Assembly (NCBI GenBank): GCA_000004985.1
Contig: GG738924.1
Direction: 5' to 3' (one strand)
Source: Naegleria gruberi
Lineage: Eukaryota
Length of the DNA stretch: 64,000 nt
The notes beneath the pieces are model-generated. The model saw only the letters and a program-made list of their open reading frames with translations. It was not told the origin of the DNA and did not search any database. Shown here one piece after another: positions 3,337 through 63,068 of the stretch. Position 1 is the stretch's first letter; each line of letters begins with the position of its first letter. The position numbers and the translations under genes were made by a program.

Positions 3337-3545
3337 TTTTTTTCTTGGTTTTGGCGTACTTGAACATTTTTATTTTTGGGTTACAAAATACACTTCGAAT
3401 TTTCGCTGGAACTCAAAGAAAATTTGCAGTAATCGGTGGTTTCACACTTTAAAAAAAAACGAGTTCTCATTCCAACAAGTAACACCCACGCAGTTGTTGT
3501 AGTTTGGAAGAGGAACTTTGAGATTTTTGCAAAAAAAAACAAAAG

Positions 3546-3581
3546 TGGAGTCATAGGGAATCGAACCCTAGACCTTCTGCA

Positions 3582-3612
<31 letters not shown>

Positions 3613-3618
3613 AACCCC
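3546..3618 (-). tRNA. tRNA-Ala, anticodon UGC. 73 nt, CCA not encoded.
   Basis: The reverse complement folds as a canonical cloverleaf: GGGGTTA acceptor, TAGCTCAGTTGGTAGAGC D-arm, anticodon loop TTTGCAT, T-arm GGGTTCGATTCCC. It has the G3:U70 alanine identity pair. Confidence 0.9.
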
Positions 3619-11600: not shown

Positions 11601-12510
11601 TACAAGTGCAAAACCAGATATTCTCAAAGTTAAAGAAGATTTGAACATGTTGGAAAGGGCTGCCAGAGTTGAAATGCAAACATTAGCAGACAAGATTGAC
11701 AGTATGGAAAAGTCTATTGCTCTTCTGAAAACAGAGATTCAATACTATAGTAAAAATCCACAGCCAAACGATAGATTCTTGGAAGTTTTTGGATCCTTCC
11801 TGAATGAATGTGAGGATGAAATGAAACTTATTAAGGAAAAGCAACAAAATATGGATAATCAAATTTCAGGGGTTGCTGAATTCTTGGGTGAAGACCCAAA
11901 CACTGTAAAGAAGGAACCAAAGGAAATGTTTTTAATGTTAAATTCATTCATTACTGACTTGTACAAATCAGTAGATAATTTGAAAAAGGAAGAAGAAAAG
12001 AGAAAGAAGGAAGAAAGCAAGCTTGCTAAGGAGAAAGACAATCGTCCATCATCCCCTGTAGTTACAGTTGGTGGATTGAAGGCATTTAATTCATTCAGAA
12101 CACCATCTAAAGTTCCTCTCATTGCTGAAAATGCAGATGTTTCTGTAACACCAAGCAGTCCTGTAACTCCAATTATTATTTCCTTACCAGATAGTGAACC
12201 AAGTGTGGAAATCACTTCTCCAAGTACACCAATTCAAGAGAAGCAAAATGAGCCAACTATCGAATTAACCAAGAATGGACATGATTTGCTTTCACCTTCG
12301 ATGCAAATGGGTAATTCTTTCGAAGAAAATAGTCCATCAAGACGTAGTGGTCACATTAGAAATCCTTCCATTCTCATGTCTCTTGAAAAGTCCCTATATG
12401 AAGGTTCTGCCTTATTGTCCCCATCTACAAAGACAAGAAAGAGAGGTGGAGGAATGATGACAGGTTTAGATATGAATGAATTGAGTGCTGCATTAAATAA
12501 AAAAAAGTAA
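8669..12510 (+). CDS. Diaphanous-type formin (GBD/FH3 - FH1 - FH2). Exon 1 is 8669..9861, followed by a 48-nt intron 9862..9909 (GTAAGT...ACAG). Exon 2 runs 9910..12510, with an apparent 1-bp frame disruption in the FH1 repeat near 10670-10680.
   Basis: N-terminal armadillo-like GBD/FH3 region, then a coiled coil. FH1 has about 12 poly-Pro repeats (VPPPPGMGGVVPPPP...). The FH2 domain starts at KKASVPTKDVRLNKLDNNKLQKSVWMKK...MFAQ and runs to the stop. Frame A (9917..10750) and frame B (10708..12510) both encode FH1-like Pro repeats. One repeat copy reads tattgtt where an earlier copy reads gtgttgtt. Confidence 0.85.
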
Positions 12511-33545: not shown

Positions 33546-34050
33546 TGAGGCTGTAAAAAGCAATACTCAATCACGATATCATAGAATCATAATTGTCATT
33601 TTAAGACCTTGCTTGGATTGACTATTAGAAATGCTTTAACTTGATAAGTCCCTCGAGTTCTGTTATTATATATCATGAAATTTGTCTGTTCGTGAATAGA
33701 AGTTTACTTGTTCATTATCAGTTTCTCGGTTCCTTTTATCAGAATCGAATAAAAACTGTAGTTGCTTCTAGTAATTCGAGAGCTGTTAGCTGATCAATTC
33801 TTGGTTTTTTGTATTACAATAAAAAAGATTTCAGATATTTATCTTCATTAATGCCACCAATCAAATTCCTATCATTTCGTGATGTGAAAAAAAGGATTGT
33901 ACCTAAACTAATCTTTTAGGACCCTTTTATGAGGCTTTGAACCTCTTGTAAAGTAATGGGATAGTGGGAATTTATTTTTTACGTTTCTTGCTATTCGAAA
34001 ACAACTGCTCCATTCGAAACTGCTGAAAAAATATTTTGTAGTGCTAATTG

Positions 34051-37000
34051 ATGGATATTAATTCATCTACCAAGGAGGAAACACCTTCAAATGGTGATGG
34101 TACAAAGGATAAACCTAATTGTGCTGATGATAATTCTTCTAACAAGGAAGAAGAAACTATTCGAAATGATACGAAACGAAATTCTTCTTCGTCTACAAAA
34201 CCAATAATTATTCATCAAGATGGAGAATCTAATACACCACCAACAATTGAAAAATCAAATTCTCCTCCTACTACAATAACACATAGTCAATCTTCACCTA
34301 ATATTTTCTATCCGAAAGGAAATCAACAAGTTTCTAATAATTTTCGTCATCATCAACAGATAGTTTTCAATACACCATCAACAACAACAATATTTGATGC
34401 TTCCCATCCGTCTAATTCTATCGAATTAAAAGAAGTTTCGAATAGTAATACTACCGTTGCAATTCCCCTTCATCAAACAAATCAAACTAATCAAACTAAT
34501 GTCCAATCGACAAGAAATGGAAAATATTCATCTCTTGCCGATAATTCCTTCTCCTCTACTAACATGCCTTCACCAAATCATTCAACAACTGTCAGTCCAA
34601 ATAATACGAAAGGTGAGACTAAACAAACTCTCAGACATCGAGCATTTTCGAATGTAAAATTGATTTCACCTAGAAAGAGACTGAAACAATCTCCTTCCAC
34701 TTCTAGTTTTCAAACTTCTTCTGATTCTTGGGATGTAAAAGAAAATCGTAAAGAATTGGAACAATTATTCGATTTTAAAAGAAGAGGTTATTCGAAAGGA
34801 GGCACCAAAGATTGTTGCTTTAATTTCTGGACAGCTATTTATAATACACTTTGTCCAGTGAATAGAATTTCGAACATTTTACTCTTCATTGTAATTATTC
34901 ATACATTAGTTTGTATTATTGCAACTTCAGTGATTTTATATTCTGCGTAAGTTGATTTTCTATTAGAATGTTTTTGGAATTAATTTCAATTCATTGAACT
35001 GTCATCATGTATCATACTTTATTTTTGGATTAATTTTCAATATTCTAATTTCTTTTAAAAGTGGAGAACAAAGTGTTCAAGAAATAACTCGACTCAATAA
35101 TATGAATCTAGTTCAAGAAATGGTTCAATTTTTGGATGTTGCAACCAAATCGAGTACAGAATTATCCATGCTCTTTTCAGTTCAATCGAAATATTACAAT
35201 GATACGAAAGGAAATGGAAGTTTTGTCGAGCCAATCACTCGATTCTCAACAGTTGTTGCTCCAAAATTGTATACCTATTCAAACTCCTTGTCTATGGTTT
35301 ATTATGGAAATGATAATGGTGATTTTGCATTTGCTGAGAGGTCTAGCACTGGTCCATATTTGTACCTTTCTCAGAACATTTTTCAGGATCAATTTAGTGA
35401 ACTGTTCAAGAATAAGACATTCCCTGCTTCGAATAATATTTATGTGTTTCTTACGAATGATTATTTTGAGCCCTATCTTCAAAAGAGTAATACAGTATTT
35501 AGGATTTTGTACAATTCAACATATGATCCGAGAGTGAGACCGTGGTACACTGCCACTGAATCATTGGAAAAGGGAAAACCAGTTTGGAGTAATGTATTTG
35601 TGGATGTGAATGGAAATTTAAGTATTGCTGCCAGTTTAGTTTTGAATAATTTGAATAGTATCAAACCCTCCTTCAAGGAAGTGATTGGTGTTCATGTGAT
35701 TTTCAAAAAAATTCAAACCTACCTGTTAGGACTCTATTCCTATACGAATAATTTGATGATTTTGATGGAGAATAATGGAAATTTACTCACTTCCAATGAA
35801 GATAGCTTTCCACTCACTTATTCCAACTTGTCGAGAGTGAACATATCCTCTTTTACCTCTGCCACTAAGTTTTCAAAGGAGGAGAAATCATTCTGGGGAT
35901 TGAGCAATGAAAAGCTAGATCTCATTGAAAAGATTTCCAATGTAATGGTTTCTAACAATTTACTAGATAAGAGATTTAATGGAACTGTTCCGTGCACTTC
36001 TGAAACTTTTCAAGCAACACAGGTTGCAGACATTCCAGATCAATTCTGTATTCTGAATCGATTTGTAGCCATCAAGCAGTATAACACATCAACTTCTTTT
36101 GTGAGTGTGAGTCGTTTGATTGATGCATGTGGCATGGATTTCTATTTTATAGTGAGCAGAACGTATTACTCATTCGCTGATGTATTGGTTGACCATTATG
36201 TTGGTCTATTGGTTGTTCTTGTAGTTACTGTTTTGATTGGTACACTGGCTGTACTGGCTCTCACATCATGCATCTCTTATTCACTCTTCTTTGTCTCTAG
36301 AAAATTGTATTACATTTCCAAGTTAAGACAAGGGGACAAACCAAAGCAAAGTTTAGCTTACAAGGCACAACGAGCCATCAATATGATATTCTATGAGGTT
36401 CACACTTTACAAAAATGTTTGGATAGTGTAGAAAGAGCCAACTCGAGTTTTATCAAGTACATTCCAAGAAGTGTTGTCAAGTTTATTGTGGAAGGTTCAT
36501 CAAGTGCCAAACTAGGAATGATTAACGCTGAAATTACAATAGTATTTACAGATTTAGCCAATTTTACAAATATCAGTGAGTCATTGTCAATTCACAATTT
36601 GCTTTTAGTTATTTCCAGATATTTTGAAGTTGTCACGTCAAATGTTCAAGAATGTGGAGGAATAATTGACAAATATATTGGAGACGGTTGCATGGCATTG
36701 TTCAATACTCCCTATCAACCAGTCACTCATCATGCAGAACATGCTTGTAAGGCTGCAATCAAAATTGTCAAGGGATTGAAAAAACTAAACAAGGAAATGG
36801 AAGAAATTTACAAGATGAAACTTCCAACAGAAATTAGTGCACGAGTTGGTGTTAATACTGGCAGCGCACTGATTGGAAATATTGGAACTCATGATAGATT
36901 GAACTTTACTGCTGTTGGCGATTGTGTAAATGTTTCAAGTCGTTTGGAATCTCTCAATAGAATGTATGGAACTAAAATATTGATTGGTGAAGGAAGTGTT

Positions 37001-37984
37001 TCCACCTTCAAAGGAATTGACAAGCTCAGAGGAGAAACAAAGGACCATTTTTCAACCATGCTCGATCAAAGAGAATTTTCTCTCTCTGATCTCTCACAAA
37101 AAATGATGAATTTGGTAGAATTTCAAGTAGCCACTCCAAAGACACACGAGAGTGTCGCTGCTCAGGCATCTGCTGATTTGGGAAAGGAAATGAGCTTTAG
37201 CTCTTCTTCCAATAATTTGAAAGCCACATCAACTTCATCCTCTCAGGACACTTCTCTGCCGCAAGTTGTGACCTACTTTATCGATACCATTTGCTTGAAA
37301 GGTAAAAATCAACCTGTTCCAGTATTTGCAGTTCAATGTGATAGAAAATTAGCGACATCTGAACAAATTTACATTGAAAAAATGTTGGATCTGGTTCGTA
37401 GAGAGCTATTGGAAGAGAAACGATTGAAAGATGTCATTCATTTATTGCGGAGTTTGATGCTTTTCTTTGAGGAGAATCAATTGACCGATTCACCAGTATT
37501 TAGAGAACACAACACTGATCATTATGAGTTTAAATTTGGAGAGGAAATTCATACACCTATTTCTAGCATCAATGGAGAAAAGACCGAGGAGGAAATTTCT
37601 ACCAATGTTGAAGGAGATCCCTATCCAGTCATTTACAAGGCCATTTCGAAACTAAAGGAAAGATTGGAACTTACCTTAATGGAACACGAAGCCAAGAAGA
37701 GAAAAGTCCAAATCAACAAGAAACGTAGTTTACTAACAGCACTCTCTATTGATACTCGATCCAAATCTGATCCACTCATTCATCCAATACTTCCAATTAT
37801 TCCAGATTTTTCAACAACTTCACTTTTGGAAGAAAACAACAATATTGAAACTGTGGAGAACTCTGAATCAACACCAACCATGGCCAAATATGAATATTAT
37901 CGACAAATGGCCTTGATGGAAAATGAAAATAGAAGAAGCTCAATGAAATTGGACGATTTTGCTTTGGTATTGCATGAGAAATAA
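34051..37984 (+). CDS. Receptor-type class III adenylyl/guanylyl cyclase. Exon 1 is 34051..34946 and exon 2 is 35062..37984. The intron 34947..35061 is 115 nt (GTAAGT...AAAAG).
   Basis: The S/T/N-rich N-terminus ends in a TM helix (LLFIVIIHTLVCIIATSVILY) and is spliced in phase to an extracytoplasmic sensor-like domain of about 380 aa (Cache/CHASE-like). A second TM (LLVVLVVTVLIGTLAVLAL) follows. The cyclase homology domain is AEITIVFTDLANFT...IDKYIGDGCMALFNTP...ARVGVNTGSALIGNIGTHDRLNFTAVGDCVNVSSRLESLN...YGTKILIGEGS, followed by a C-terminal tail. Confidence 0.75.
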
Positions 37985-38076: not shown

Positions 38077-39552
38077 ATGTCCCTCAAACTCCAAGTCTAT
38101 GAAGATGTGGCTGAACAACAACAACAACAATGGCCTGATGTTTCCCTCCGTAAGCAACTCTCCCAATCCGACCCCAAATGGTTCATCAAGCCTTCTAATT
38201 ATTCTCACTTGGCAGAGTTGGAGATTTATCCAAGAGTTTTCCTTGGTTCTCAGTGGGAAGCAAAGGATCCAGACTGGTTTCAAACTCACAGAATTTCCCA
38301 TGTTTTGAATGTGAGTACGCTGCAGAATACCTTCCAGAAGAAGCCTTTGTATTATAGTAATTTATCAACAAATTCCTCATCGGATCCAGAGAATACAAAT
38401 CCAAATATTATGATGATGAATAGTATGAGTAGTGGTGGTAGTCATAGTGTAAATAAGAATACAACATTGAGTGGTAAACAACAGGTACATGTAAATTATT
38501 TAAAGATTAATGTTGATGATTCGACGGATGTGAATGTGAGAAAGTACTTTGAAAAGGTGATTGATTTTGTGAGGGATGCTTTGGAAGGATCCCCAACAAG
38601 TAATGTTTTAATTCATTGGTATGTTTTGTTGTTGTTTGATGATGAAGTTAATAATAATATTATTGTTGTTATTTGTTATATTGATGATGTTTGAAATAGT
38701 AAGGAAGGTAAATCTAGATCAGTGACCATGATGTTAGTGTTCGGAATGGCTTACTTTGATTTATCACTCTATGAAGCATATAAACACTTTGAAAATAAGA
38801 CTTTTAACAGATCGAGAATTAATTTGGGATTTCAATTACAATTGATGAATTATGAAGTGGAATTGTTGGAGGCAAAAGGTGTGGAAAAACCAAAGAATTC
38901 GCTGGATTTCCTTAATCAAGCAGCAGTTAATAGTTGTCGTAGTAATGTTACACAACCTCAACCAATTCAAATCACAACAACAGAAGAACAATCAAAGAGA
39001 CCTCGAAGAAATACCAAAAAGACACCACTCTCGGATATTACTAATACTGGAGCCACTACTTTACAGCCACCACCATCAAAAGCAAAGAAATCTACTGTTA
39101 AGGTACTTCCAAAGAAGACAAAGAATGCAACAACACCTATTCCACAAATAATTCCACCAATAATTAATATTGAAGAAGATATTCCTGAAATACCCTCAAT
39201 TGTTGAGAATAGTAGCATCTCAATAGATCAACAACAAGAAAACCAACCTGTTACACCTTTGAGAAGTCCAATAAGATCGAGAAGATCGAGTCGTAAAACA
39301 CCTTCTTCTATCATTAAGATTCCATTCTCAACACTGGACAATGCATCCTATGTTTCTCCAATGAAAAACAAGATGCCACCAACACCATTGGGAACTCCTT
39401 CTATCACTAATGACATTATAATAGATGATTATTCTACATTGGAATTTAAATTTGATGAGGATGATTTGGAAATTTCTAAAGGACTCGAAGATAGAGTATT
39501 CATGACAACTCCACTCAAAAAGAGAAAGACTGACGAAGATATTATGCAGTAA
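38077..39552 (+). CDS. Dual-specificity protein phosphatase (DUSP) with a long S/T/P-rich C-terminal tail. Exons are 38077..38618 and 38700..39552. The intron 38619..38699 is 81 nt (GTATGT...ATAG).
   Basis: DUSP N-terminal fold IYPRVFLGSQWEAKDPDWFQTHRISHVLNVS. Splicing reconstitutes the catalytic loop VLIHCKEGKSRSVTMMLVFGMAY (HCxxGxxRS). Unspliced, the frame runs into a stop after HWYVLLLFDD. Confidence 0.8.
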
Positions 39553-39973: not shown

Positions 39974-40501
39974 ATGACTGATCACGCTGAATTATTCAAA
40001 CCAAAGACTGGAGGCTTAGCTTTCAAGAGAGCTGCCAATGAACTATTCGAATACACCATCGTTGATGCTACCAATGCCTTGAAAAGTTACAATAGCAAAA
40101 TGATTCTCCTCATTGACTGGGATTCCCTTTCGAATATTCCAGCCGAATTAAAGTACAAGTATGGAGATACTGATAATGAAGAGAAAGCTCTCGATAACAT
40201 TATGAAATTCCTCAAGAACTCCTCCAGATTGAAGAGTTTGGGTGATTTAGTAATTTGGGAATTCGTCCAAGATTCGGATTGTAAAGAAGCATTTCAAGTA
40301 TTGGACAAGTTGATTTTCAGAGTTGTTCATAATGAGAATGATATGGATCATTCTGGTGCTCATGGATATACCTATCAAGTTAAAGGAAGTGAATTGATTG
40401 TAACTTTGGAATGTAATGTCACTCAAGTTATTCAATATCAATATGAAGGTTGGACTGTTGACAGATTTGAAGAAGTTAAAAAGTTGATGGCTTGTTTCTA
40501 G
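39974..40501 (+). CDS. Hypothetical protein
   Basis: 175-aa ATG...TAG ORF with normal coding composition and no recognised domain. Confidence 0.4.
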   Translation: MTDHAELFKPKTGGLAFKRAANELFEYTIVDATNALKSYNSKMILLIDWDSLSNIPAELKYKYGDTDNEEKALDNIMKFLKNSSRLKSLGDLVIWEFVQDSDCKEAFQVLDKLIFRVVHNENDMDHSGAHGYTYQVKGSELIVTLECNVTQVIQYQYEGWTVDRFEEVKKLMACF

Positions 40502-40778: not shown

Positions 40779-42333
40779 ATGGACTCATCCACTCAAATTC
40801 GTCGTTTACAAGTTATCAAATCTCATTTATATCAAGAGAATTCATCTTGGTCAACCAACATTGATTCTAATAATTGTGCAGCAACTTCTTCATGTCCACC
40901 TTCACCAACACTTCTGGCCATGACCAAGGAAAAGATGGGAACAGGAATTCCCAATCAGAGACAAAAATTGGCCAAGTGGAATGGTTGGGATACAAGGACA
41001 CAGATTTTACAATGAATTCCAAGAGGGAATGTTATGTGACTGGTGACAGGTACGTGATTGCTGGACAGTGTGTGCCAAATTTTCGTCCATGGTTTGAGAA
41101 TTTCACTGGTTTGAATACAAAATTCGAATCTTCAATTCAATCATGGTCAGAAATGAAACAAAAAATTGAAAAGCCAAATATTTGTGAAAAATTTATTGAG
41201 GATTTAAGGCAAGTCAAATGTTACAAATATTTGACATTTGATGATGAGGCTCGTTTGATGCATTCTCATGGACATTGTTGTCAAGAGATTTATCAATTAA
41301 GATTTGGAAGATATGTTGGTAAATGTCAAGATTGTCACTCCAAAGGGAACTTGGTTTCTTCCATGTAATGTCCCACACAAGTCAACTGGACCAGATTTGA
41401 TGCAGCTATTTATGGGATCTGAAGGAATTTTGGGAATTGTGACAGAAGTGACATTAAGAGTAAGGAAATGTCCTGAATGTCAAGTTTATGGCTCTGTGTT
41501 GGTTCCTGATTTTGAGGCAGGAGTTGCTTGTCTTCATGAAGTTTCGAATAGAAGAGTTGCTACTGCTTCGATTCGTCTAATTGACAATTCTCAATTTCAG
41601 TTTGGTCAATCACTAAAACCTAAACAAGAAAGTAAGCTTGAAGGCCTTAGTGATTGGTTTAAGGGTTTGTACGTTACTAAGGTTTGTGGATTTGATAAGG
41701 AAAAGATGTGTGTCATTACTTTATTATTCGAAGGAAGTCAATCTGACATTGACAGGCAACAGAAAATTATTTATGACATAACTGCTAAATATGGAGGACT
41801 TGTGGCAGGTGCTGAAGCTGGTTATCGAGGTTATTTACTGACCTATGTCATTGCTTATTTGAGAGATTATGGTTTCAATTATTATTTCATGTCAGAAAGT
41901 TTTGAAACTTCAGCTCCTTGGTCAAGAGTCGTTCCAATAATCAAGAAAGTAGAAGAAAGAGTCAAAGAAAGTGCCAAGCAACGAGGATGTTCCAACACCA
42001 TGGGTTTCGGCTCGTGTCACTCAAGTATACGAAACTGGTGCCTGTATCTATTTCTATTATGGATTCATCTTTAGAGGATTACAAGATCCAATTAAGGCAT
42101 TCTCAGAGATTGAAGCTGAAGCAAGAGATGAAATCTTACTTCAAGGTGGAAGTTTATCTCATCATCACGGAGTTGGAAAGCTCAGAAAGGAATGGATGAG
42201 TCAAGTGGTGGGAGATCAAGGAGTTGAGATTTTGAAAAAGTTAAAGAATAATGTTGATCCTGATAATTTGTTTGGAAATGGAAATTTGGGATTGACTAGA
42301 GCTGATTTGAGTATTTCGGCAAATATCGAATAA
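40779..42333 (+). pseudogene. AGPS: Alkyl-dihydroxyacetonephosphate synthase (AGPS)-like pseudogene. It has three frameshifts, and the central FAD-binding domain is absent.
   Basis: Four consecutive ORFs in different frames (40656..41015, 40874..41368, 41304..42074, 41971..42333) are colinear with human AGPS: RRLQVIKSHL...KWNGW | GYKDTDF...TGDRYVIAGQ...AHGHCCQEIYQLRF | EDMLVNVKIVTPKG...STGPDLMQLFMGSEGILGIVTEVTLRV...GYLLTYVIAYLRD...SAPW | RVTQVYETGACIYFYYGF...LSHHHGVGKLRKEWM...DPDNLFGNGNL. About 170 aa between the LRFG and EDML blocks (the IPIGGGTS/GGW FAD-binding region) have no counterpart. Confidence 0.7.
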
Positions 42334-42426: not shown

Positions 42427-43416
42427 TTAAAGGTTTCGAATAATTCCAAAATACTTTTCCAAAATGTCCCACAACTCTTCCTCACTTTCAATAGTACGCT
42501 CTGTCACATTTCCCAACTTTCTAATTGTGAATTTTCTATCAACAATCGAATATCTACCTTCAGAAGTCATTAAGGCAACCAATACTATTTTAGTTTGTCC
42601 ATGATTTGGATTCGTAGTTGCATACCAAGCTCCCAATTCAGCATCTAACAATGACATGATATTATCTTCTTCAAAATGCATGATATCCCACCATTCAGAC
42701 TCTGGTTTGTTTTTATATTGAAGAAACCATTTCTTTTGGACAAGTTGACCATTTTCTTCATTGACATCTTGATGATTGATATTGGCACCAGTTTTAAATC
42801 GGTAGCAACCCCACTTGTCATGATTTAATTTCGTACTTGTAAAAATCTTTCCCAAAACCAAACGAAATACCTCGCCAGTATTTTCACTCTTTTCACAACC
42901 ATTACTTAAAAGGAGCGGAGATCTTGGTTGACCACCCCATCCCAAACCATTATCAACCAGATATCTATTTCCATCTTGACAATCAACCAAGAGAGCCATG
43001 TGTGTAGTGCAACTCAATGGCAATCCACTGTCCAATTCTGGAGCTACGAAACGATTGAGAAGTTTCACGCCAACTGTCGTGACAGAAAATCCAAATTCAC
43101 GTAAAGCTCTGGCCAAGAGTAAGTTTTGTTCAAAGCAAAATCCTCCACGAGATTTCAATACGAGCTTGGTAAAGATATCATTTGGATCGAGGGAAACTTT
43201 GATTGAATCTGGGAGGGAAGAATCTGAACTAAACATGCGCATCTCTGGATAAAGAGTTGCCAAATTTTCGAATGGAATGTGAATGGCATGATTCCATGAA
43301 ATGGTGTGTAATAGAGAATAAGAGTTGCCACATGTGTCAATCAATTGTTTTTCAACATTTTCACGAGAAACTAAACCAATACGGTTGAGATAACTGTCAA
43401 TATCAAATATGTCCAT
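42427..43416 (-). CDS. Arylamine N-acetyltransferase (NAT family)
   Basis: NAT motifs IPFENL and KSRGGFCFEQNLLLARAL (catalytic Cys). Length and layout fit NAT. ATG...TAA. Confidence 0.8.
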   Translation of the reverse strand: MDIFDIDSYLNRIGLVSRENVEKQLIDTCGNSYSLLHTISWNHAIHIPFENLATLYPEMRMFSSDSSLPDSIKVSLDPNDIFTKLVLKSRGGFCFEQNLLLARALREFGFSVTTVGVKLLNRFVAPELDSGLPLSCTTHMALLVDCQDGNRYLVDNGLGWGGQPRSPLLLSNGCEKSENTGEVFRLVLGKIFTSTKLNHDKWGCYRFKTGANINHQDVNEENGQLVQKKWFLQYKNKPESEWWDIMHFEEDNIMSLLDAELGAWYATTNPNHGQTKIVLVALMTSEGRYSIVDRKFTIRKLGNVTERTIESEEELWDILEKYFGIIRNL

Positions 43417-43630: not shown

Positions 43631-43719
43631 GGGTGGTTAGCTCAGCGGTAGAGCACCGGATTGCAAAGTTATTTGCAGCAGACATCCGATGGTCAGGTGT
43701 TCGATCCACGTACCACCCT
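43631..43719 (+). tRNA. tRNA-Cys, anticodon GCA, with a 17-nt intron after position 37 (possibly a degenerate copy)
   Basis: GGGTGGT acceptor, TAGCTCAGCGGTAGAGC D-arm, anticodon loop TTGCAA | intron AGTTATTTGCAGCAGAC | A, T-loop TTCGATC, 3' acceptor ACCACCC. The intron carries TTGCA, complementary to the anticodon region. There is one mismatch in the anticodon stem and one G-G mismatch in the T stem. Confidence 0.6.
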
Positions 43720-45277: not shown

Positions 45278-47164
45278 TTAATCTTGTAAGATTTTGTTGG
45301 CCTTTCTCCAATTTTCAACAATGATCCTCACTGATTTGTTACTAGATTTCAATCTTTCGAATAGATCGGTCATGTTATTGAGACATGCAACTCGAACAAT
45401 GTCAAATAATGTACTGGCTATGAGTGAATCATCATTCACACTCAGAATTTCATGTTCAATTCTCAGATAAATTTGGTCAATGTTGGCAATATTCAATTCT
45501 AATGGAGATCCTTCTTTCAGGTAGGTTTTCAATATTTTCATTGCCACCAGTTTCTTATTCTTTCGTTTGGGGGATTTTCTGAAATTTTCAATATCTCTAT
45601 ATGCTAAAACATCTTCATTACAATAACTCCTTGTCGCAAAATCCAATAACAATGCAAATGTCTTCCTATTTTTCAAAAATAATTCAAGTTCTGATTGAGC
45701 ATACTCAGCTTGATGATTATCATTACGAATGGCATAAATGACAGGAAGAATGACTGAAATAATTATTTCCAATAATGAATAGGTCAGTAGAGTAAATCCA
45801 AATGGAACGAAATAATCTGTCAAGAATCTGATAATCTCAATTTGTCCACTAATTATATAAGCAAGTGATAAAGCCACTTGAATAAATACCAAAACAAAAG
45901 CTTCAGTCTTAATTGACCAAGTATCTCTATCAACAAAGAAGAGAATGATCAAAAAGCTCACTTCTATCACAATGTAGAGTGCTGCTTCTGCTCCCAGCAA
46001 TATAACAGTATTTGAGGTTGTAACACATCCACTATTAAATGCAAATGGACTCACATTCCACAAGAATATTCTCTTTCCACTATTACTATACGAAAGTTCA
46101 TCAATTCCTCCCAATAAAGCCCAAATAGATAAGTGAATAATGAATGAAATTGTATAAGTGATTGCAATAAACTTGTAGCTCACCAAATATGAAAATATTT
46201 TGAACTTTTTGTCAGAGAAAATTGCAGAAGTGTTGTCAATGTCAGAAGAAGTGACCCACGTTTTTTGATCTTGTTCATCATGGACATCTTCTCCAGTTTC
46301 TGGAGTAACCCGTGTTGTTGTAATCTGTTCTGAAGTTTGTGATGCATCGTTTGGATTTTCTTGTGATATATTTGAAATGGTACTCGAGTTATCAAATGTT
46401 TTTGGTGTCAATAATTCTGGTTGACTTGTCTCTGATAATTCCGTAGAAGATCCATGTTGTATAGATGCTAATGGAAGAATGGTAATACCTTTCAATTTGT
46501 CATCCTCTTGAACTTGTTGATCCACATTTTGTTCCTTTTTCACATTGGTCAATTGTTGTGGTTTTTCACTTTTCGTCTGAAACATTTGTGCCTTCTTCTT
46601 ATTGAGTAAATACATGAAATAAATCCTCAAACATCGAAATACAGTTGGCAGACACAAACTAGGAATAATGATGAAAAACGAAAAAGTGTACAAGAAACAT
46701 GGAAATATTTTCCTCGAAATTGTAAATCGTAGACATGTAATGACCACAAAAGCCAAACTAGCTGATATTGTCAGTAGCATGTAAACTGGATTCCTAGCTT
46801 TGATGTGTCCACTCTTTCTCTTCCAAATAACTCCAACAGTTCCAAAAAGTGCCAACGTCAAATAGAGTGTCAAGAAGATGGATGCGATGATTGGTGTAAA
46901 GATGCTGTCTGGGCAAATATTATTTACCACTGTTGCATTGTATCCTTCACGACTCAAGTCTCCTAGATTGAACAATCTTTCGTCACATATTGAATAATTT
47001 GTTGTTGAGGTATTGTTGTTGGAAAGTTGTTGTTGTTGAATAGAATAAATTGTTGTTGCTATTGGATAACGATAATGAAAAGATTCTTGAATAAATGATG
47101 AAAGAAGGGTAAATATTCGAAATTGGGTTTCATTATTTTGACCTGCATGATGCAGCTGGTACAT
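45278..47164 (-). CDS. Seven-transmembrane receptor with a C-terminal RGS domain (7TM-RGS, AtRGS1-like architecture), copy A
   Basis: Seven hydrophobic helices with a long S/T-rich loop between TM3 and TM4. C-terminal RGS box KTFALLLDFATRSYCNEDVLAYRDIENFRK...LFDIVRVACLNNMTDLFERL. ATG start. Confidence 0.7.
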   Translation of the reverse strand: MYQLHHAGQNNETQFRIFTLLSSFIQESFHYRYPIATTIYSIQQQQLSNNNTSTTNYSICDERLFNLGDLSREGYNATVVNNICPDSIFTPIIASIFLTLYLTLALFGTVGVIWKRKSGHIKARNPVYMLLTISASLAFVVITCLRFTISRKIFPCFLYTFSFFIIIPSLCLPTVFRCLRIYFMYLLNKKKAQMFQTKSEKPQQLTNVKKEQNVDQQVQEDDKLKGITILPLASIQHGSSTELSETSQPELLTPKTFDNSSTISNISQENPNDASQTSEQITTTRVTPETGEDVHDEQDQKTWVTSSDIDNTSAIFSDKKFKIFSYLVSYKFIAITYTISFIIHLSIWALLGGIDELSYSNSGKRIFLWNVSPFAFNSGCVTTSNTVILLGAEAALYIVIEVSFLIILFFVDRDTWSIKTEAFVLVFIQVALSLAYIISGQIEIIRFLTDYFVPFGFTLLTYSLLEIIISVILPVIYAIRNDNHQAEYAQSELELFLKNRKTFALLLDFATRSYCNEDVLAYRDIENFRKSPKRKNKKLVAMKILKTYLKEGSPLELNIANIDQIYLRIEHEILSVNDDSLIASTLFDIVRVACLNNMTDLFERLKSSNKSVRIIVENWRKANKILQD

Positions 47165-47232
47165 TGTTGTCTTTTGGACGCAATTTTTTTGTTGTTGCTT
47201 GTCTCACACAATTAGGATATCCTACAGATCAC

Positions 47233-49164
47233 CTACAGGTTTAAACTGTTTCTACGAAAGTTAATAACCATTTCTTGTATGTTCTTGTCTGTGGCTTTCA
47301 ATCTTTCAAATACATCAACCATGTTATTTAGACAGAGAACTCTAATATCATCAAACAAGGTATTGGGAATCAGAGAAGGGTTTGTTGCTTTTTGGAGAAT
47401 TGATTCAATTTCTTCATACTTTTTGGAAAGGTTTGACATGTTGAGCTCGAGAGAAGATCCACTTTTAAGATAGGTTTTCAATATTTTCGTGGCAACCTTC
47501 TTCTTGTGCTTTTTGGAAATCTTTCTAAACTTTTCAATGTCTCTGAAGGCAAGAACATCTTCAGGGCAGTAGCATCTTCTGGAAAATTCTAAAAGTAAGG
47601 CAAATGTTTTTCTATTTTTGAGAACCGTCTCAATTTCAGTTTGGGAATATCCTCCATTCTCGGTATTTAATTGTTTTTGAAACTTTCTGTCATCAATAAT
47701 TGCATAAATTACAGGTAACAATACAGCAATAAATATTTCAAATACTGAATAGGTCAGTAGAGTAAATCCAAACGGAACGAAATAATCTGTCAAAAATCTA
47801 ATCACCTCAATTTGACCACTAACTAAGAATGCAATAGCTGTTATGATTTGAATCACAATTAATACAAAGGTATCTCTTTTGATATGAAAAGCATCTCTAT
47901 CAGCAAAGAATAATGGAATAAAGAATGCAATCTCGATAATAATGTAGATGGCTGCCTCTGCTGCCAACATAAAGACAGTGTTAGTGTTAGTAACACAGCC
48001 TGTAGTTGCTGCAAACATGCTGATATTCCACAAGAATACTCTTTTTCCTCCATTACTAACAACAAGTTCATCGGCTCCTCCAAATATTGCCCAAATAATA
48101 AGATGCAAAATGAAGGCAACAATATACGATGAAGCAATGAGTTTGTAACTCACCAAGAAGGAATAAACCTTAAATTTCCTATCATTATAAACTGATTCTG
48201 TATAGTCCACATCAGTTGAGGTAACCCATGAACGGGAATCATCTTCAGTGTCTGAATCTACCTCACTTTTTCGTTGTTCTGATGAAACATGACTTGATGT
48301 ATTGTTGTCAGTCAATGGGGTATCGGGAATGTGTGGAATAACAACACCATTATTATTGGTAGTAGTAGTAATTTCTGGAAAGGTGAATTTTTCCACACTA
48401 AAAGGTTCAACTACATCTTGATGTTCTGTTAAAGTGGTGGGAATTAATTCAAAATTGACCACTCTACTTGATGTGAGAGCTTCCCTAGACGTCGATGGAC
48501 TATTGTCTTGTTGGTGACTCTGTGAATCTCTTGCTGTTGTGATGTGAGATACCACCAATGAGAGGGAAGAATTATTGTTGAGTGCAGATGATGAAGCTGA
48601 ATGTTTTGATGATTCAAAAGTCATTGCTTTTCTTATATTCAACTTGTACATGAAAAAGATACGAATGAATCGGAATACTGCTGGAAGACACATTGCAGGC
48701 ACTGTGATAAAGTATGAAATAGTGTATAAAAAGCAGGGGAATATCTTTCTTCCTATAATAAATCGCAAACAAGTTGTTACGACAAAGTACAAAGTTGCCG
48801 AGATGGTCAAAATCATATGAAGTGGATTACGAGCCTTGATGTGTCCACTGTTTCTCTTCCACAACACTCCAATAATAGCCAAAGTAACCAAACACAAATA
48901 AACAAATAGAAAAACTGCTGAAACTATTGGAGTGAAGATACTATCTGGACAAATGTTATTGACCATCGTGGCATTATATCCTTCTCGGCTCAGTTCTCCC
49001 AATTTAAAGAGTCTCTCATCACAAATAGATGATGTTGAATTACTATTTGATGAGGTATTTGATGATGCAACCAATAAAGAAGAAATAATTGTTGGCACTT
49101 GACTGCTCACGCTACTGAAGAAATATTGCAATACTTGTTGTAGTGGAATGAGTTGTGCAACCAT
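47233..49164 (-). CDS. Seven-transmembrane receptor with a C-terminal RGS domain, copy B (tandem paralog, about 70-75% identical in the TM1-TM3 and RGS regions). First ATG is at 49164; the ORF-track start at 49227 is a TTG.
   Basis: Same 7TM + RGS layout (KTFALLLEFSRRCYCPEDVLAFRDIEKFRK...LFDDIRVLCLNNMVDVFERL). The copies are colinear, with conserved blocks ICDERLF.LG.LSREGYNAT.VNNICPDSIFTPI and GHIKARNP. Confidence 0.7.
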   Translation of the reverse strand: MVAQLIPLQQVLQYFFSSVSSQVPTIISSLLVASSNTSSNSNSTSSICDERLFKLGELSREGYNATMVNNICPDSIFTPIVSAVFLFVYLCLVTLAIIGVLWKRNSGHIKARNPLHMILTISATLYFVVTTCLRFIIGRKIFPCFLYTISYFITVPAMCLPAVFRFIRIFFMYKLNIRKAMTFESSKHSASSSALNNNSSLSLVVSHITTARDSQSHQQDNSPSTSREALTSSRVVNFELIPTTLTEHQDVVEPFSVEKFTFPEITTTTNNNGVVIPHIPDTPLTDNNTSSHVSSEQRKSEVDSDTEDDSRSWVTSTDVDYTESVYNDRKFKVYSFLVSYKLIASSYIVAFILHLIIWAIFGGADELVVSNGGKRVFLWNISMFAATTGCVTNTNTVFMLAAEAAIYIIIEIAFFIPLFFADRDAFHIKRDTFVLIVIQIITAIAFLVSGQIEVIRFLTDYFVPFGFTLLTYSVFEIFIAVLLPVIYAIIDDRKFQKQLNTENGGYSQTEIETVLKNRKTFALLLEFSRRCYCPEDVLAFRDIEKFRKISKKHKKKVATKILKTYLKSGSSLELNMSNLSKKYEEIESILQKATNPSLIPNTLFDDIRVLCLNNMVDVFERLKATDKNIQEMVINFRRNSLNL

Positions 49165-49754
49165 TTTCTTTGTTGTGATCTTCAGCAACAGTGTTGACAA
49201 CTTTGATGGGAAAGGAAACTTTTCCAAGCCTCCGAAACAAAACGGGTTGATGTTATGCCTTACATATCATCTCGACTCGATTTTTTGGTTATGAAAATTT
49301 TTTGTGATGTGTTGATTGGTATTGTATAATCTTTTTTAGGACCAAAGCTGTAATAATAATTTTTAAAAAATATTTGAAAAAGATATTGTTAATAATAATA
49401 TCGGGTTGATGTTGTTAGTGTTTGAGTGGGTTAACAAGTTGAAACACCTGAAGGAATTTCAGATCAGCACGATGAGATTATTTAAATAGTAGTGGTTTTT
49501 AAATTTTTATTGTTGGACAAGTGTTCGTTGAGGAATGACCATACTCAATTCATCAATTACACGAATAACAATTTGAATATCGCCAAACAATCACTGTGTT
49601 TTACTCTTTACTTTGTGTGCTCAACAATAAAAAGAGTACTAGCCTTGAAAGCTTGTTTAGATTCTTACTGCCTTGATGTGTAACATGTCAGCCAATCTAA
49701 GGAAGTAAACGAAATATAAAAAAATATGAAACTCGTCATCACCGTTACATCAAC

Positions 49755-56928: not shown

Positions 56929-58050
56929 AATTAAAATTGTAATATTTATTAACGTCTCTTGTATCGTAAAGACCTGAGAGACGAGGTCTACAACCAGTAA
57001 GTTTCGGTTCAGCGTTTAAGTGTTATGGGTTGACGCTAAGTGGTTGGTTAGACTGAGCCTGCCTGTGGTAGGCAGAGAGGTATTTCCTGTTAATAGTGAA
57101 GCTTGCATTGGGACGGTTGTACCACACTGAGTTCTTGTAGCAATTTTCCAAATAAATAGCTAGTGCTTTGTAGACTTCTAGGGCCACATTCTTAGGTATT
57201 CTTTTGCGCTTAGACCAGTTAAGCCAGTCATTACGGGAGCAACGACCATCAAATTCTATCCTAAGTTGAGAGGATTCTGAGATATCAGGAGGGAAACGAA
57301 TCTTGTTAAGGCTAAATTTCTGGGAGATAGCGTCCCATGTGGCATACAGTTCATCCTTTTCAGGATTGCATTTGGGACAAGTTTGGAATACGTGGGTCCA
57401 ATCTTCCTTGACATTACATTTGTCACAAATACTGTCGTTACCTAGTAAAATTGAGTGGTGGAGATTAAAGTAGAGGAGTCTTTGCTGATAATAAGACAAG
57501 AGAGAGTTTCTCCAGAAGGAGAGAGTGCTATTATGCCAATTATAGTCATTGTCTAATTGGCCCAACTTATTAATAATTTTCTTGGATCGCTGAGTTTCAA
57601 TGATAGCATTTCTAAGGTTGGAGACAGGCTTGTGATTGGTACGGTTACACAAGACCCATCCATTATCTGTGGATTTGAAGTAATATTTCAGATCTTTCAT
57701 TGTAGCGGCAGCATTTTTCCACAGTGAATCTGTAGTTTCACCCTTGAGCGCCTTATTTATCATGGCTCTTGCGATTTTTTGGGTGATAGGAGAGGTAGAA
57801 TTGACAAACCTACAGACAGATGCCATCCTTTCCACGTGACTTATATCAACTGGAGATGAAAGCCCAAGTCCACCCTGGGATTTATCACCATATATAACGG
57901 CTTTAGAGAGCCTGTTGTCACATCCAATTCTTTTCTTAATAATTCCACTAATTTTGACTTCCAATTTTTCCAATAGTGAAAGTGGAATAGCATCTACGCT
58001 TGAGAGGTATCTAGGTACAGAAAGCACCTTAGATAATATTACGTTCCTCA
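56929..58050 (-). mobile_element. 3' portion of a non-LTR (LINE-type) retrotransposon, 5'-truncated by the assembly gap
   Basis: ORF 57023..58027 encodes the C-terminal part of a LINE ORF2-like protein (YGDKSQGGLGLSSP... and a C-terminal Cys/His knuckle CDKCNVKEDWTHVFQTCPKC). An A/T-rich 3' tail with a short hairpin lies at 56929..57022. Local GC is higher than in the flanks. The ORF runs straight into the N-run. Confidence 0.55.
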
Positions 58051-60503
58051 NNNNNNNNNNNNNNNNNNNNNNNNNNNNNNNNNNNNNNNNNNNNNNNNNN
58101 NNNNNNNNNNNNNNNNNNNNNNNNNNNNNNNNNNNNNNNNNNNNNNNNNNNNNNNNNNNNNNNNNNNNNNNNNNNNNNNNNNNNNNNNNNNNNNNNNNNN
58201 NNNNNNNNNNNNNNNNNNNNNNNNNNNNNNNNNNNNNNNNNNNNNNNNNNNNNNNNNNNNNNNNNNNNNNNNNNNNNNNNNNNNNNNNNNNNNNNNNNNN
58301 NNNNNNNNNNNNNNNNNNNNNNNNNNNNNNNNNNNNNNNNNNNNNNNNNNNNNNNNNNNNNNNNNNNNNNNNNNNNNNNNNNNNNNNNNNNNNNNNNNNN
58401 NNNNNNNNNNNNNNNNNNNNNNNNNNNNNNNNNNNNNNNNNNNNNNNNNNNNNNNNNNNNNNNNNNNNNNNNNNNNNNNNNNNNNNNNNNNNNNNNNNNN
58501 NNNNNNNNNNNNNNNNNNNNNNNNNNNNNNNNNNNNNNNNNNNNNNNNNNNNNNNNNNNNNNNNNNNNNNNNNNNNNNNNNNNNNNNNNNNNNNNNNNNN
58601 NNNNNNNNNNNNNNNNNNNNNNNNNNNNNNNNNNNNNNNNNNNNNNNNNNNNNNNNNNNNNNNNNNNNNNNNNNNNNNNNNNNNNNNNNNNNNNNNNNNN
58701 NNNNNNNNNNNNNNNNNNNNNNNNNNNNNNNNNNNNNNNNNNNNNNNNNNNNNNNNNNNNNNNNNNNNNNNNNNNNNNNNNNNNNNNNNNNNNNNNNNNN
58801 NNNNNNNNNNNNNNNNNNNNNNNNNNNNNNNNNNNNNNNNNNNNNNNNNNNNNNNNNNNNNNNNNNNNNNNNNNNNNNNNNNNNNNNNNNNNNNNNNNNN
58901 NNNNNNNNNNNNNNNNNNNNNNNNNNNNNNNNNNNNNNNNNNNNNNNNNNNNNNNNNNNNNNNNNNNNNNNNNNNNNNNNNNNNNNNNNNNNNNNNNNNN
59001 NNNNNNNNNNNNNNNNNNNNNNNNNNNNNNNNNNNNNNNNNNNNNNNNNNNNNNNNNNNNNNNNNNNNNNNNNNNNNNNNNNNNNNNNNNNNNNNNNNNN
59101 NNNNNNNNNNNNNNNNNNNNNNNNNNNNNNNNNNNNNNNNNNNNNNNNNNNNNNNNNNNNNNNNNNNNNNNNNNNNNNNNNNNNNNNNNNNNNNNNNNNN
59201 NNNNNNNNNNNNNNNNNNNNNNNNNNNNNNNNNNNNNNNNNNNNNNNNNNNNNNNNNNNNNNNNNNNNNNNNNNNNNNNNNNNNNNNNNNNNNNNNNNNN
59301 NNNNNNNNNNNNNNNNNNNNNNNNNNNNNNNNNNNNNNNNNNNNNNNNNNNNNNNNNNNNNNNNNNNNNNNNNNNNNNNNNNNNNNNNNNNNNNNNNNNN
59401 NNNNNNNNNNNNNNNNNNNNNNNNNNNNNNNNNNNNNNNNNNNNNNNNNNNNNNNNNNNNNNNNNNNNNNNNNNNNNNNNNNNNNNNNNNNNNNNNNNNN
59501 NNNNNNNNNNNNNNNNNNNNNNNNNNNNNNNNNNNNNNNNNNNNNNNNNNNNNNNNNNNNNNNNNNNNNNNNNNNNNNNNNNNNNNNNNNNNNNNNNNNN
59601 NNNNNNNNNNNNNNNNNNNNNNNNNNNNNNNNNNNNNNNNNNNNNNNNNNNNNNNNNNNNNNNNNNNNNNNNNNNNNNNNNNNNNNNNNNNNNNNNNNNN
59701 NNNNNNNNNNNNNNNNNNNNNNNNNNNNNNNNNNNNNNNNNNNNNNNNNNNNNNNNNNNNNNNNNNNNNNNNNNNNNNNNNNNNNNNNNNNNNNNNNNNN
59801 NNNNNNNNNNNNNNNNNNNNNNNNNNNNNNNNNNNNNNNNNNNNNNNNNNNNNNNNNNNNNNNNNNNNNNNNNNNNNNNNNNNNNNNNNNNNNNNNNNNN
59901 NNNNNNNNNNNNNNNNNNNNNNNNNNNNNNNNNNNNNNNNNNNNNNNNNNNNNNNNNNNNNNNNNNNNNNNNNNNNNNNNNNNNNNNNNNNNNNNNNNNN
60001 NNNNNNNNNNNNNNNNNNNNNNNNNNNNNNNNNNNNNNNNNNNNNNNNNNNNNNNNNNNNNNNNNNNNNNNNNNNNNNNNNNNNNNNNNNNNNNNNNNNN
60101 NNNNNNNNNNNNNNNNNNNNNNNNNNNNNNNNNNNNNNNNNNNNNNNNNNNNNNNNNNNNNNNNNNNNNNNNNNNNNNNNNNNNNNNNNNNNNNNNNNNN
60201 NNNNNNNNNNNNNNNNNNNNNNNNNNNNNNNNNNNNNNNNNNNNNNNNNNNNNNNNNNNNNNNNNNNNNNNNNNNNNNNNNNNNNNNNNNNNNNNNNNNN
60301 NNNNNNNNNNNNNNNNNNNNNNNNNNNNNNNNNNNNNNNNNNNNNNNNNNNNNNNNNNNNNNNNNNNNNNNNNNNNNNNNNNNNNNNNNNNNNNNNNNNN
60401 NNNNNNNNNNNNNNNNNNNNNNNNNNNNNNNNNNNNNNNNNNNNNNNNNNNNNNNNNNNNNNNNNNNNNNNNNNNNNNNNNNNNNNNNNNNNNNNNNNNN
60501 NNN
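58051..60503. other. Assembly gap (2453 N)
   Basis: Run of n. ORF-track entries 57915..60527 and 58029..60566 are translations of N and are artefacts. Confidence 1.
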
Positions 60504-60523
60504 CTGGAAAATGTAATGGAAAC

Positions 60524-61395
60524 TTGAGTTTTTATAGAAGTGTAATAGGATTTGTATATTCAACACTCTCCATAGGAGGAATTGGAATTATCATTTCCTT
60601 TTTTATTGTCTTCCTTCCAAAATTAGTATCATCAATCAAAACAAGGAAACTGATCACTTTAAATTCGATAATTATTAATATCATAGCCATGACCATTGGA
60701 TTTTCAAATTTACTTTCCATTTACCTGACTGGCTACAACCCTGCAAACTCAATGGTAGAATCAGCTATTCTCATCTTGTGCGCCTTGGCATTATTTCTTT
60801 GGTTATTGAAAAATTTGAGAATGGTGCTATATATCAAGAATAGACAATATCCATCCTATATCAAATGGATCTATATTGCTACATACTGCTGTTGTTTCGT
60901 ATTGATTGCTGTGTTTCTTCCATTGTTAGAACGTTATTACCAGGCTCAACTTCCAGTTTATTTATCATTGGCTGTAGTATTGATTGTTTCATTCTTGGTG
61001 TTCAGTTTGATTGTGTATATAGTGATGAGAAGGAGTACGGATGTGAATATTATCAAATCGTCTGTAAGTTTAGTTTAATAATTTTGAAATATTTTTAATA
61101 GTTTGTGAAATATTTATTATTTATTATTGGATTCATAATTGTCTTGTCAGCAGTATGGTATTCAGGTACTGGATGGGGTGCTTACTTGTGTGCAAATTAT
61201 CTCTTAGTATTTTCATTGTGTTTTAGTATTTCGTATATGGAATTTGAAAAGGAAGAATTTGATTTTTTATTCAATATCAAAAGATGTGGAAAGTCAAAAA
61301 CAAAACAACAAACAAAATCAAATGAAATGTTACAAAGTTTCTTGACAATATCAGAAAAAGAATCAAACTCTTCCTCAACTAGTACTTTAGAATAA
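60524..61395 (+). CDS. Seven-helix transmembrane protein (possible GPCR-like), 5'-partial after the gap. Exons 60524..61063 and 61102..61395, with a 38-nt intron 61064..61101 (GTAAGT...AATAG).
   Basis: Five hydrophobic helices in exon 1 and two more after the in-phase splice (…IIKSS|FVKYLLFIIGF…), followed by a hydrophilic C-terminal tail. The N-terminus may lie in the gap. Confidence 0.45.
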
Positions 61396-61856: not shown

Positions 61857-63068
61857 ATGATGGATCAATTAAATATTGATATTCTCGGGTATGTGTTTGA
61901 ATTTCTTCCGAGAGGAACAGACAGGAAGAGAATTGCATTGGTCAACAAGACTTTTCACCATTCTAGATATTTGTTGGAGAAACGTGAAATGACTCGGATG
62001 TGGCATGATGAGAATAATTGTCTACAATATCACCCTCTCATGGAAGATGTGGTGAGTGAAGAAGAATTGGAGAAGAAACAAGAAGAATTACAAATTTCCA
62101 TACCTTTCCATTTGAAATTGTTTGTAACTGTCTTGACGAATGGTAGACAGCCATGGTCTAATACTGTTGTGCATGTTAGTAATTTGTTGGGACCTGTCGA
62201 ATCTTGGTTTTTGGACACACATAATGGTTTGGACACACAGAATGGTTATGCAATCTTGGGAGTTGATACTCAATTATCGAACATATTAACATTGAGTAGA
62301 GATGGGAGGATTAGAGTGAATGGAGACACGGTTGACTTTTTTGAGTTTGTTACGATGGTAAATCGTCCATTTAATCCAGAATTTTACAATTTTGAAAAGT
62401 TTAAAGAAAGAGTGTACTTCCCCTTCTCAATGACCAAGGAATATTATAGTACGTTGCCAGACAAGTACAAGTTTGTGGACAAGTTGACCATGCATGCTAT
62501 TGAATTGGATCCAAAATGTTATGCATATGTTCCTGATTATATCAAGATGATGAGACATATTGCCAAGAAGGTATTCATTAGAAATCCATCCTTGGGCACA
62601 TTAATTCCAAAAGAACTTTTGGAAGATACAGATTTTGTTATGGATGTTTACAAATCATCACAATCAATTCTGTTTTATGCTTCTCCAATAGGAAAATGGT
62701 GGAGTGATAGAGTTTTTATGATTGAGGCATTGAAGAGTGATGTATGTTTAATAAGAAACTGTTCTGAGGAAATACGGACTGATAGAGAAATTATTGACAT
62801 GATTATTGACATAGATGCAGCAAGTTCTTTTCAATATATTGGAAAATTCAAGGAAGATGAAGATATTGTGAAAAAGGCACTATTTAAATCAAACTTCACG
62901 ATTCTACATTATATCAATAGTGATTTTCTGCTTAATAATAGAGAACTAGTTCTCACAATATTGAAAAGTACGGAAAGTGTNNNNNNNNNNNNNNNNNNNN
63001 NNNNNNNNNNNNNNNNNNNNNNNNNNNNNNTAAAGTCAACCATTATCTTCCTACGGTACCATTTCTGA
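61857..63068 (+). CDS. Hypothetical protein with an F-box-like N-terminus, interrupted by a 50-N gap
   Basis: The ATG at 61857 gives MMDQLNIDILGYVFEFLPRGTDRKRIALVNKTFHHSRYLL (F-box-like), followed by about 350 aa of internally repetitive sequence. The ORF spans the N-run 62981..63030. Confidence 0.35.
   Translation: MMDQLNIDILGYVFEFLPRGTDRKRIALVNKTFHHSRYLLEKREMTRMWHDENNCLQYHPLMEDVVSEEELEKKQEELQISIPFHLKLFVTVLTNGRQPWSNTVVHVSNLLGPVESWFLDTHNGLDTQNGYAILGVDTQLSNILTLSRDGRIRVNGDTVDFFEFVTMVNRPFNPEFYNFEKFKERVYFPFSMTKEYYSTLPDKYKFVDKLTMHAIELDPKCYAYVPDYIKMMRHIAKKVFIRNPSLGTLIPKELLEDTDFVMDVYKSSQSILFYASPIGKWWSDRVFMIEALKSDVCLIRNCSEEIRTDREIIDMIIDIDAASSFQYIGKFKEDEDIVKKALFKSNFTILHYINSDFLLNNRELVLTILKSTESXXXXXXXXXXXXXXXXXXKSTIIFLRYHF
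62981..63030. other. Assembly gap (50 N, unknown size)
   Basis: Run of n. Confidence 1.

Follow-up and report, generated by a model that had tools for sequence, protein, structure and literature searches.

The 64,000-nucleotide stretch of Naegleria gruberi strain NEG-M studied here (contig GG738924.1 of assembly GCA_000004985.1; hereafter the window) contains, at positions 40779-42333 on the plus strand, four open reading frame (ORF) pieces in frames 0, 2, 0 and 1 in succession. On three-frame translation, these make up a protein resembling AGPS, alkylglycerone-phosphate synthase (also ADPS, EC 2.5.1.26), a VAO/PCMH-type flavoenzyme. Based on comparison with an intact syntenic ortholog in a sister strain, the locus is very probably a very young, in situ unprocessed pseudogene of a second AGPS paralog (paralog B; the window copy belongs to locus B1), with the pathway retained via other copies. 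The host scaffold is 196,593 bp long, and the ORFs neighbouring the locus exactly match EFC36882, EFC36921, EFC36885 and others. The surrounding DNA is AT-rich (~34% G+C) and its ORFs are closely spaced and mostly intronless. The stitched reading frame of the window copy comprises 516-518 codons, with no in-frame stop in 516 codons; the protein begins with MDSSTQIRRLQVIKSHL, contains SLSHHHGVGKLRK...NLFGNGNL in its C-terminal part and ends with NLFGNGNLGLTRADLSISANIE. The features of the locus are as follows:

40779..42333 (+): decayed AGPS-B1 gene, a putative unprocessed pseudogene (three-frame translation, alignment to intact homologs)
40803..40829 (+): codons of a nonapeptide of the peroxisomal targeting signal type 2 (PTS2), R-L-QVIKS-H-L, intact in alignments with N. 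fowleri, Willaertia and guinea-pig AGPS
40986..40989 (+): lesion 1, a 1-bp deletion in a G run, TGGGG to TGGG, where GGG is 40987-40989 (ortholog alignment)
41306..41309 (+): lesion 2, junction of a 398-bp deletion at 41306/41307, ambiguous within 41306-41309 (ortholog alignment)
41307..41354 (+): remnant of FAD_binding_4, its last 16 residues, EDMLVNVKIVTPKGTW (alignment, and Pfam on the intact paralog)
41472..42285 (+): remaining FAD-oxidase_C (PF02913) cap domain, in two frames (Pfam)
41949..41967 (+): 19-nt GT..AG 'intron' of the reference gene model, stepping over lesion 3; it reproduces the IKK/KVPSNEDVPTPW junction
41985..41986 (+): lesion 3, a single A of the intact ortholog (CGA-AAT-GTT) replaced by GG (CGAGGATGTT; ortholog alignment)
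42013..42051 (+): conserved codons of RVTQVYETGACIY, aligned to the Arg/Thr/Tyr active-site region of mammalian AGPS (RVTQxY...CIY region)
42160..42168 (+): conserved codons of the HHH loop (homolog alignment)

Concerning the identity of the gene, a search with the frame-corrected protein retrieved AGPS of Naegleria fowleri (81%), Willaertia magna (76%) and animals, as well as N. gruberi entries described as 'predicted proteins'. All top matches are AGPS, and the HMMER E-values against AGPS homologs go down to 1e-280, so the AGPS likeness of the locus is not a chance pattern. Compared with solved structures, the intact paralog A (see below) matches guinea pig AGPS (4BBY) with E = 1e-210 and D-lactate dehydrogenase with only 1e-27; the Dictyostelium AGPS structure 2UUU is also among the closest characterised proteins. 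An earlier sequence-only reading of the window had claimed colinearity with AGPS from an N-terminal motif to NLFGNGNL, and alignment to intact homologs bears this out, the window copy being colinear from the PTS2-like RRLQVIKSHL through to the C-terminal end. The window copy is AGPS by descent: the homology is specific and colinear, and not to other VAO-family oxidases.

The sister-strain contigs L001, L006, L007 and L008 come from run ERR1078381, project PRJEB11402, labelled 'metagenome', and the intact ortholog was obtained from L006 and L008; no paper naming the project or the run was found in a literature search. Short contigs of this run carry orthologs, with at least 90% identity, of both immediate neighbours of the locus; these neighbours, 278 bp upstream and 94 bp downstream of it, serve as synteny anchors:

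39974..40501 (+): upstream neighbour EFC36882, 175 aa, no known domain (dN/dS, the ratio of non-synonymous to synonymous rates, 0.08 between strains)
42427..43416 (-): downstream convergent arylamine N-acetyltransferase (NAT, EFC36921; dN/dS 0.09 between strains)

Contig L008 contains the NAT ortholog and an uninterrupted 596-codon AGPS gene, which converges on NAT as in the window and reaches the contig end, and contig L006 contains the ortholog of the upstream gene and the first ~53 AGPS codons. Joining the two via a 12-nt exact overlap gives a single 650-codon B1 ORF (650 aa). The nucleotide identity of the two strains is 98.6% over 4,765 aligned nt, and 98.4% in the B1 coding sequence (25 differences in 1,555 nt). 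The flanking genes and the orientation of the sister-strain AGPS-B1 equal those of the window copy, but the former is one ORF with a complete FAD_binding_4 domain and has none of the three lesions.

The lesions were mapped by base-level alignment to this ortholog; 25 substitutions and three indels separate the window copy from it. Lesion 1 hits the Gly codon of WNGWGYKD, a motif read in the intact ortholog and in all homologs, and changes the frame from 0 to 2; the 1-bp loss in a G run near 40987 that had been suspected from the letters is confirmed as GGGG to GGG. Lesion 2 removes nucleotides 530-927 of the B1 coding sequence (132 codons plus 2 nt) and changes the frame from 2 to 0. There is a 3-bp GAA microhomology at its breakpoint, with GAAAG at the start of the deleted block and GAAGA at that of the retained flank. 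The lost residues, 180-311 of the intact protein, include 126 of the 142 residues of FAD_binding_4. Lesion 3 adds a net 1 nt, changes the frame from 0 to 1 and lies outside any homopolymer; it agrees with the frame change claimed near 41990, and its site reads KQRNVPTPWVSARV in one frame both in the intact ortholog and in P0121, a further AGPS-like model of N. gruberi. The frame change noted near 41305 exists as a shift, but it is not a lesion of its own: it is the junction of the 398-bp deletion, since 398 (3 x 132 + 2) cannot be divided evenly by three. In the same way, the core that binds flavin adenine dinucleotide (FAD) is absent as had been stated, but its loss amounts to 132 residues and not to about 170. 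The earlier count of three frameshifts plus a deletion does not hold, as there are three events in all and the second frame change and the missing FAD core are one event. The missing segment, which might have been supplied from elsewhere, was not found in a search of the rest of the 64-kb window.

Based on the Pfam domains, FAD_binding_4 (PF01565) occupies residues 186-327 of the intact paralog, and no match to it is found in any frame or in the stitched protein of the window copy. The cap domain is present in two parts: residues 57-230 of the ORF at 41304-42074 correspond to positions 2-156 of the FAD-oxidase_C profile, and residues 11-105 of the ORF at 41971-42333 to positions 156-247. The domain is divided between the frames exactly at profile position 156 and becomes contiguous only after manual frame correction. 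Judged by its domain content, with the FAD-binding domain gone and the cap domain split between frames, the window copy cannot encode an active flavoenzyme. Compared with AGPS in general, it is colinear from the PTS2 to the C-terminus and keeps the PTS2, HHH and RVTQxY...CIY codons, but lacks most of FAD_binding_4 and has two further frameshifts. The PTS2 consensus is R-L-x5-H-L. We take the HHH loop to be catalytic (His615-617 in mammalian AGPS), and the Arg/Thr/Tyr region aligned to RVTQVYETGACIY to belong to the active site described in the structure papers on mammalian AGPS. The continued conservation of these three groups of codons is expected of a very young pseudogene.

Looking at the two-strain alignment as a whole (~4.8 kb), all frame-breaking indels are inside the AGPS locus and the flanking genes are free of them. 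The other eleven indels are intergenic, except for two which jointly make up an in-frame difference of 132 nt in NAT. The NAT of the sister strain lacks these 132 nt, found at 42467-42600 of the window, which are 44 codons near the C-terminus (285 vs 329 aa). Deletions of ~100-400 bp thus seem to segregate between the two strains in both directions. Exact-match scans of JGI metagenomes found neither the deletion junction nor the intact left boundary, and tblastx of the flanks of the window copy and of paralog A against N. fowleri and Willaertia found no common neighbours.

There is also a difference in constraint. The window copy and its ortholog are separated by 14 non-synonymous and 11 synonymous substitutions (dN/dS 0.33 at dS 0.035), and the three flanking genes have dN/dS values of 0.08-0.09 at dS 0.031-0.056 between the strains. 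For paralog A, 1 of 410 residues differs between the same strains (Fisher p = 0.005). Among the non-synonymous changes which could be polarised with outgroups, eight fall on the window lineage and two on the lineage of the ortholog; they include a P to T replacement at an invariant site in VAPASIRL. The relaxed constraint is specific to the window copy and recent, although the numbers are small. The probability of finding no in-frame stop is 0.32 at ~1% neutral divergence and 0.035 at 3%, so the stop-free frame fits a neutral divergence of ~1% and argues against one above 3%, in agreement with the excess of non-synonymous change since the strain split.

Over the longer term, the dN/dS ratio (omega) was estimated with our own implementation of the GY94 codon model and with NG86. 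On the pseudogene branch it is 0.059 (profile interval ~0.04-0.087) vs 0.069 in the background, and omega = 1 on this branch is rejected (2dlnL = 82). In the same codon analysis the full-length B1 ortholog gives 0.053 vs 0.057. The B copy was hence under constraint and functional nearly throughout its existence. A pairwise 'ML' (maximum likelihood) estimate from Biopython for the pseudogene and paralog A (dS 0.23, omega 0.80) is an aberrant optimum and was disregarded.

At least three AGPS-like loci are found in N. gruberi: paralog A, paralog B1 (the window copy) and P0121. Paralog A (NAEGRDRAFT_50637, EFC42211, model P0009) lies on another scaffold than the window copy. The sister strain contains it in full length (653 aa, P0001) at L001:335-2296, with one residue different from P0009 where the two overlap. 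The reference model lacks 189 residues (~265-453), a region which is continuous in the 653-codon ORF of L001; the hole preserves the frame and is delimited by GT..AG in the near-identical sequence of L001, which points to a false intron or an assembly gap that was bridged. P0121 (NAEGRDRAFT_54573, EFC36103) is on a 40,920-bp scaffold and, where the two can be compared, shows ~97-98% identity to the window copy. It keeps the FAD-binding domain and reads through the site of lesion 3, but both ends of the model are cut short: it begins at residue ~125 of B1 (650 aa), and its C-terminus (...VLLDAIN) is aberrant. P0121 may represent a partial duplicate, a further copy in decay or the other haplotype.

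The window copy and paralog A are ~78-83% identical in protein and 75-79% in DNA. The codon model prefers the tree ((B,A),(N. fowleri, Willaertia)) by 25-33 log-likelihood (lnL) units with the pseudogene and by 44-53 with the full-length B1, and the neighbour-joining (NJ) bootstrap for the B+A grouping is 83%. Both the margin and the bootstrap argue that the AGPS duplication is specific to the N. gruberi lineage. A duplication before the split from N. fowleri, which had been suggested by amino-acid parsimony (14 vs 8, then 16 vs 14 sites) and by a larger raw dS, was rejected as long-branch attraction on the strength of the same codon likelihoods (25-53 lnL units) and bootstrap. The B branch is ~3.3 times longer than the A branch, with similar omega (0.053-0.059 vs 0.057-0.069). 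Paralog A has a strong codon bias (GGT 34/43, GTT 27/39, AAG 31/37); in the window copy GGA makes up 26/39, and the third-position usage of the B copy equals the genome background, which explains its faster synonymous rate at least in part. This suggests that the B copy is expressed less than A. The two paralogs are sister lineages in the tree, both intronless, and share the domain plan and the C-terminal ...SISANIE, but paralog A is codon-biased, has the shorter branch, is intact in the sister strain and lies in another genomic neighbourhood.

A and B are both intact in the sister strain. The sequence-only reading had offered two outcomes, loss of the pathway or an intact paralog elsewhere; the paralog is the better supported of the two (EFC42211 and EFC36103 lie on other scaffolds of NEG-M, and A is intact in the sister strain), and the loss is not supported. 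Paralog A presumably supplies the ether-lipid synthesis activity. In a survey posted as a preprint in 2025, N. gruberi is scored as encoding AGPS, FARAT and PEDS1 (10.1101/2025.10.10.681575).

In the reference annotation, the locus is represented by EFC36883 (XP_002669627, UniProt D2W249, NAEGRDRAFT_82100; P0004), a 333-aa model which covers the 3' part only. It starts at 41313, at the internal Met of EDMLV just past the deletion junction. Its 19-nt 'intron' is located within 24 nt which encode VEERVKES and are 100% conserved with paralog A; since it sits inside these conserved codons, it is on this comparison really coding sequence, and EFC36883 is to all appearances a model built on a pseudogene.

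Other explanations of the broken frame have to be weighed against decay. The lesions in NEG-M are known from the reference assembly alone, and errors of base calling for the 1-bp changes, together with a cloning deletion or a collapse for the 398 bp, could in principle imitate a pseudogene. The long-term omega of ~0.06, the absence of in-frame stops, the homopolymer at lesion 1 and an intact gene in a strain 98.6% identical would all fit such an artefact. Yet the locus has the same dS (0.035) as the flanking genes and hence no excess of errors, and the window contains ~30 kb of long uninterrupted ORFs, with flanking genes free of frame-breaking indels. With just 3 bp of microhomology at its edges, the 398-bp loss does not qualify as the collapse of a repeat, no homopolymer surrounds lesion 3, and indel errors would not enrich non-synonymous changes and polarise them to the window copy. 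Also, the three indels per 25 substitutions at the locus are in line with neutral DNA, as intergenic DNA shows ~10 indels per 17 substitutions between the strains. We therefore regard an artefact as very unlikely, and the lesions are probably real in NEG-M DNA. A still functional locus, in which introns, programmed frameshifting or editing would bridge the frames, or in which a protein without the FAD domain would have a new role, is less credible still, and we give it hardly any weight: the annotated 333-aa protein and the conserved catalytic-loop codons are what could be said for it, but lesions 1 and 3 leave no room for an intron, the copy being colinear base for base with an intronless ortholog, the model's 'intron' is conserved coding sequence, lesion 3 splits the cap domain itself and constraint is relaxed at the locus. 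Introns as the cause of the frame changes were rejected on the same colinearity and the lack of extra bases at the sites. We infer that the locus makes no useful product.

A different question is whether the dead copy is an allele. If NEG-M is polyploid or heterozygous, the window could represent a dead haplotype and P0121 the live allele, assembled as a haplotig. The divergence of P0121 from the window copy is of the same order as that between the strains, and its FAD-binding domain, its reading through lesion 3 and its small scaffold agree with this. A haplotig, however, should carry annotated twins of the flanking genes, and the 90% clusters of the 175-aa gene and of NAT each contain no other N. 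gruberi member. H353 and I540 (alignment-column numbering) are derived states common to the window copy and the sister ortholog which P0121 does not have, so P0121 split off before the B1 copies of the two strains did; moreover, truncation at both ends is what a partial duplicate would show. A heterozygous null allele is in our view unlikely, and the window sequence is a decayed copy either way, whether allele or paralog. The interpretation as a young pseudogene of paralog B with other copies in service is supported, as the sequence-only reading had it for the pseudogene itself, by three lesions against an intact syntenic ortholog, clean flanks and locus-specific relaxed constraint. Besides the dependence on one assembly, two points weigh against it: the asymmetry of eight to two replacements is marginal alone (one-sided binomial p = 0.055), and none of the three NEG-M AGPS models is full length, A having the 189-aa hole and P0121 both ends truncated. 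It is from the sister strain that we infer an intact AGPS copy in NEG-M itself.

Concerning the kind of pseudogene, a processed (retro-)pseudogene was considered and rejected: the stop codon at 42331-42333 is not followed by a poly-A, and the locus is at the same genomic position as the intact sister-strain gene. The parent AGPS genes are intronless, and the loss of introns is hence uninformative for a processed origin. Like unprocessed pseudogenes in general, the window copy is redundant as a paralog, carries frameshifts and a deletion and has decayed in place under relaxed constraint; unlike most, it is unusually young, free of stops, intact in a conspecific strain and annotated as protein-coding. 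No paper on an AGPS pseudogene at this locus was found in a literature search.

Some other features of the window were also recorded. Just beyond NAT, at 43631-43719 (+), there is an Rfam tRNA match (46.9 bits, 89 nt) which is not called by ARAGORN and is probably an intron-containing tRNA; a standard tRNA-Ala(TGC) is at 3545-3618 (-). Runs of N at 58051-60503 (2,453 bases) and 62981-63030 (50 bases) are scaffold gaps, and the listed ORFs that span N runs, at 57915-60527 and 58029-60566, are artefactual. At 162-2782 (-), 9917-12510 (+), 34048-37984 (+), 38077-39552 (+) and 45278-49227 (-), long ORFs occur in same-strand pairs that differ in frame and abut or overlap. These are probably exons with short introns, or could be further frameshifts.

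The history which we propose is the following. AGPS would have duplicated in the N. gruberi lineage after its separation from N. fowleri. Paralog A would have kept its strong codon bias, and B would have evolved ~3.3 times faster, its codon usage drifting to the background while the protein stayed under strong purifying selection. Very recently, within ~1% of neutral divergence, the B copy would have lost constraint in the lineage to NEG-M. The 1-bp deletion, the microhomology-flanked 398-bp deletion of the FAD-binding domain, the 1-bp net insertion and the excess of replacements would then have followed. A more speculative combination of these elements, to which we assign a small chance, is that A is a codon-optimised housekeeping paralog and B a functionally distinct one, fast-evolving, constrained and conditionally dispensable, whose inactivation in NEG-M came from laboratory domestication in clonal, axenic culture. 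If true, the inactivation of B would mark a relaxation, in culture, of selection on ether-lipid or peroxisomal metabolism. The related reading of NEG-M as heterozygous for a null allele, if true, would bear on ploidy and sex in Naegleria.

The value of the finding is mainly one of annotation. The entry D2W249, catalogued as 'alkylglycerone-phosphate synthase', appears to rest on a pseudogene and an invented intron, and all three N. gruberi AGPS models are incomplete. For surveys of ether lipids and plasmalogens based on this proteome (10.1101/2025.10.10.681575), the presence call would be right, but only thanks to paralog A. The understanding of ether-lipid metabolism is unchanged. The alignment also shows structural polymorphism, in the form of ~100-400 bp deletions, between closely related Naegleria strains, and the AGPS genes of N. 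gruberi may serve as a small example of lineage-specific duplication followed by asymmetric evolution and the death of a gene at the level of the strain.

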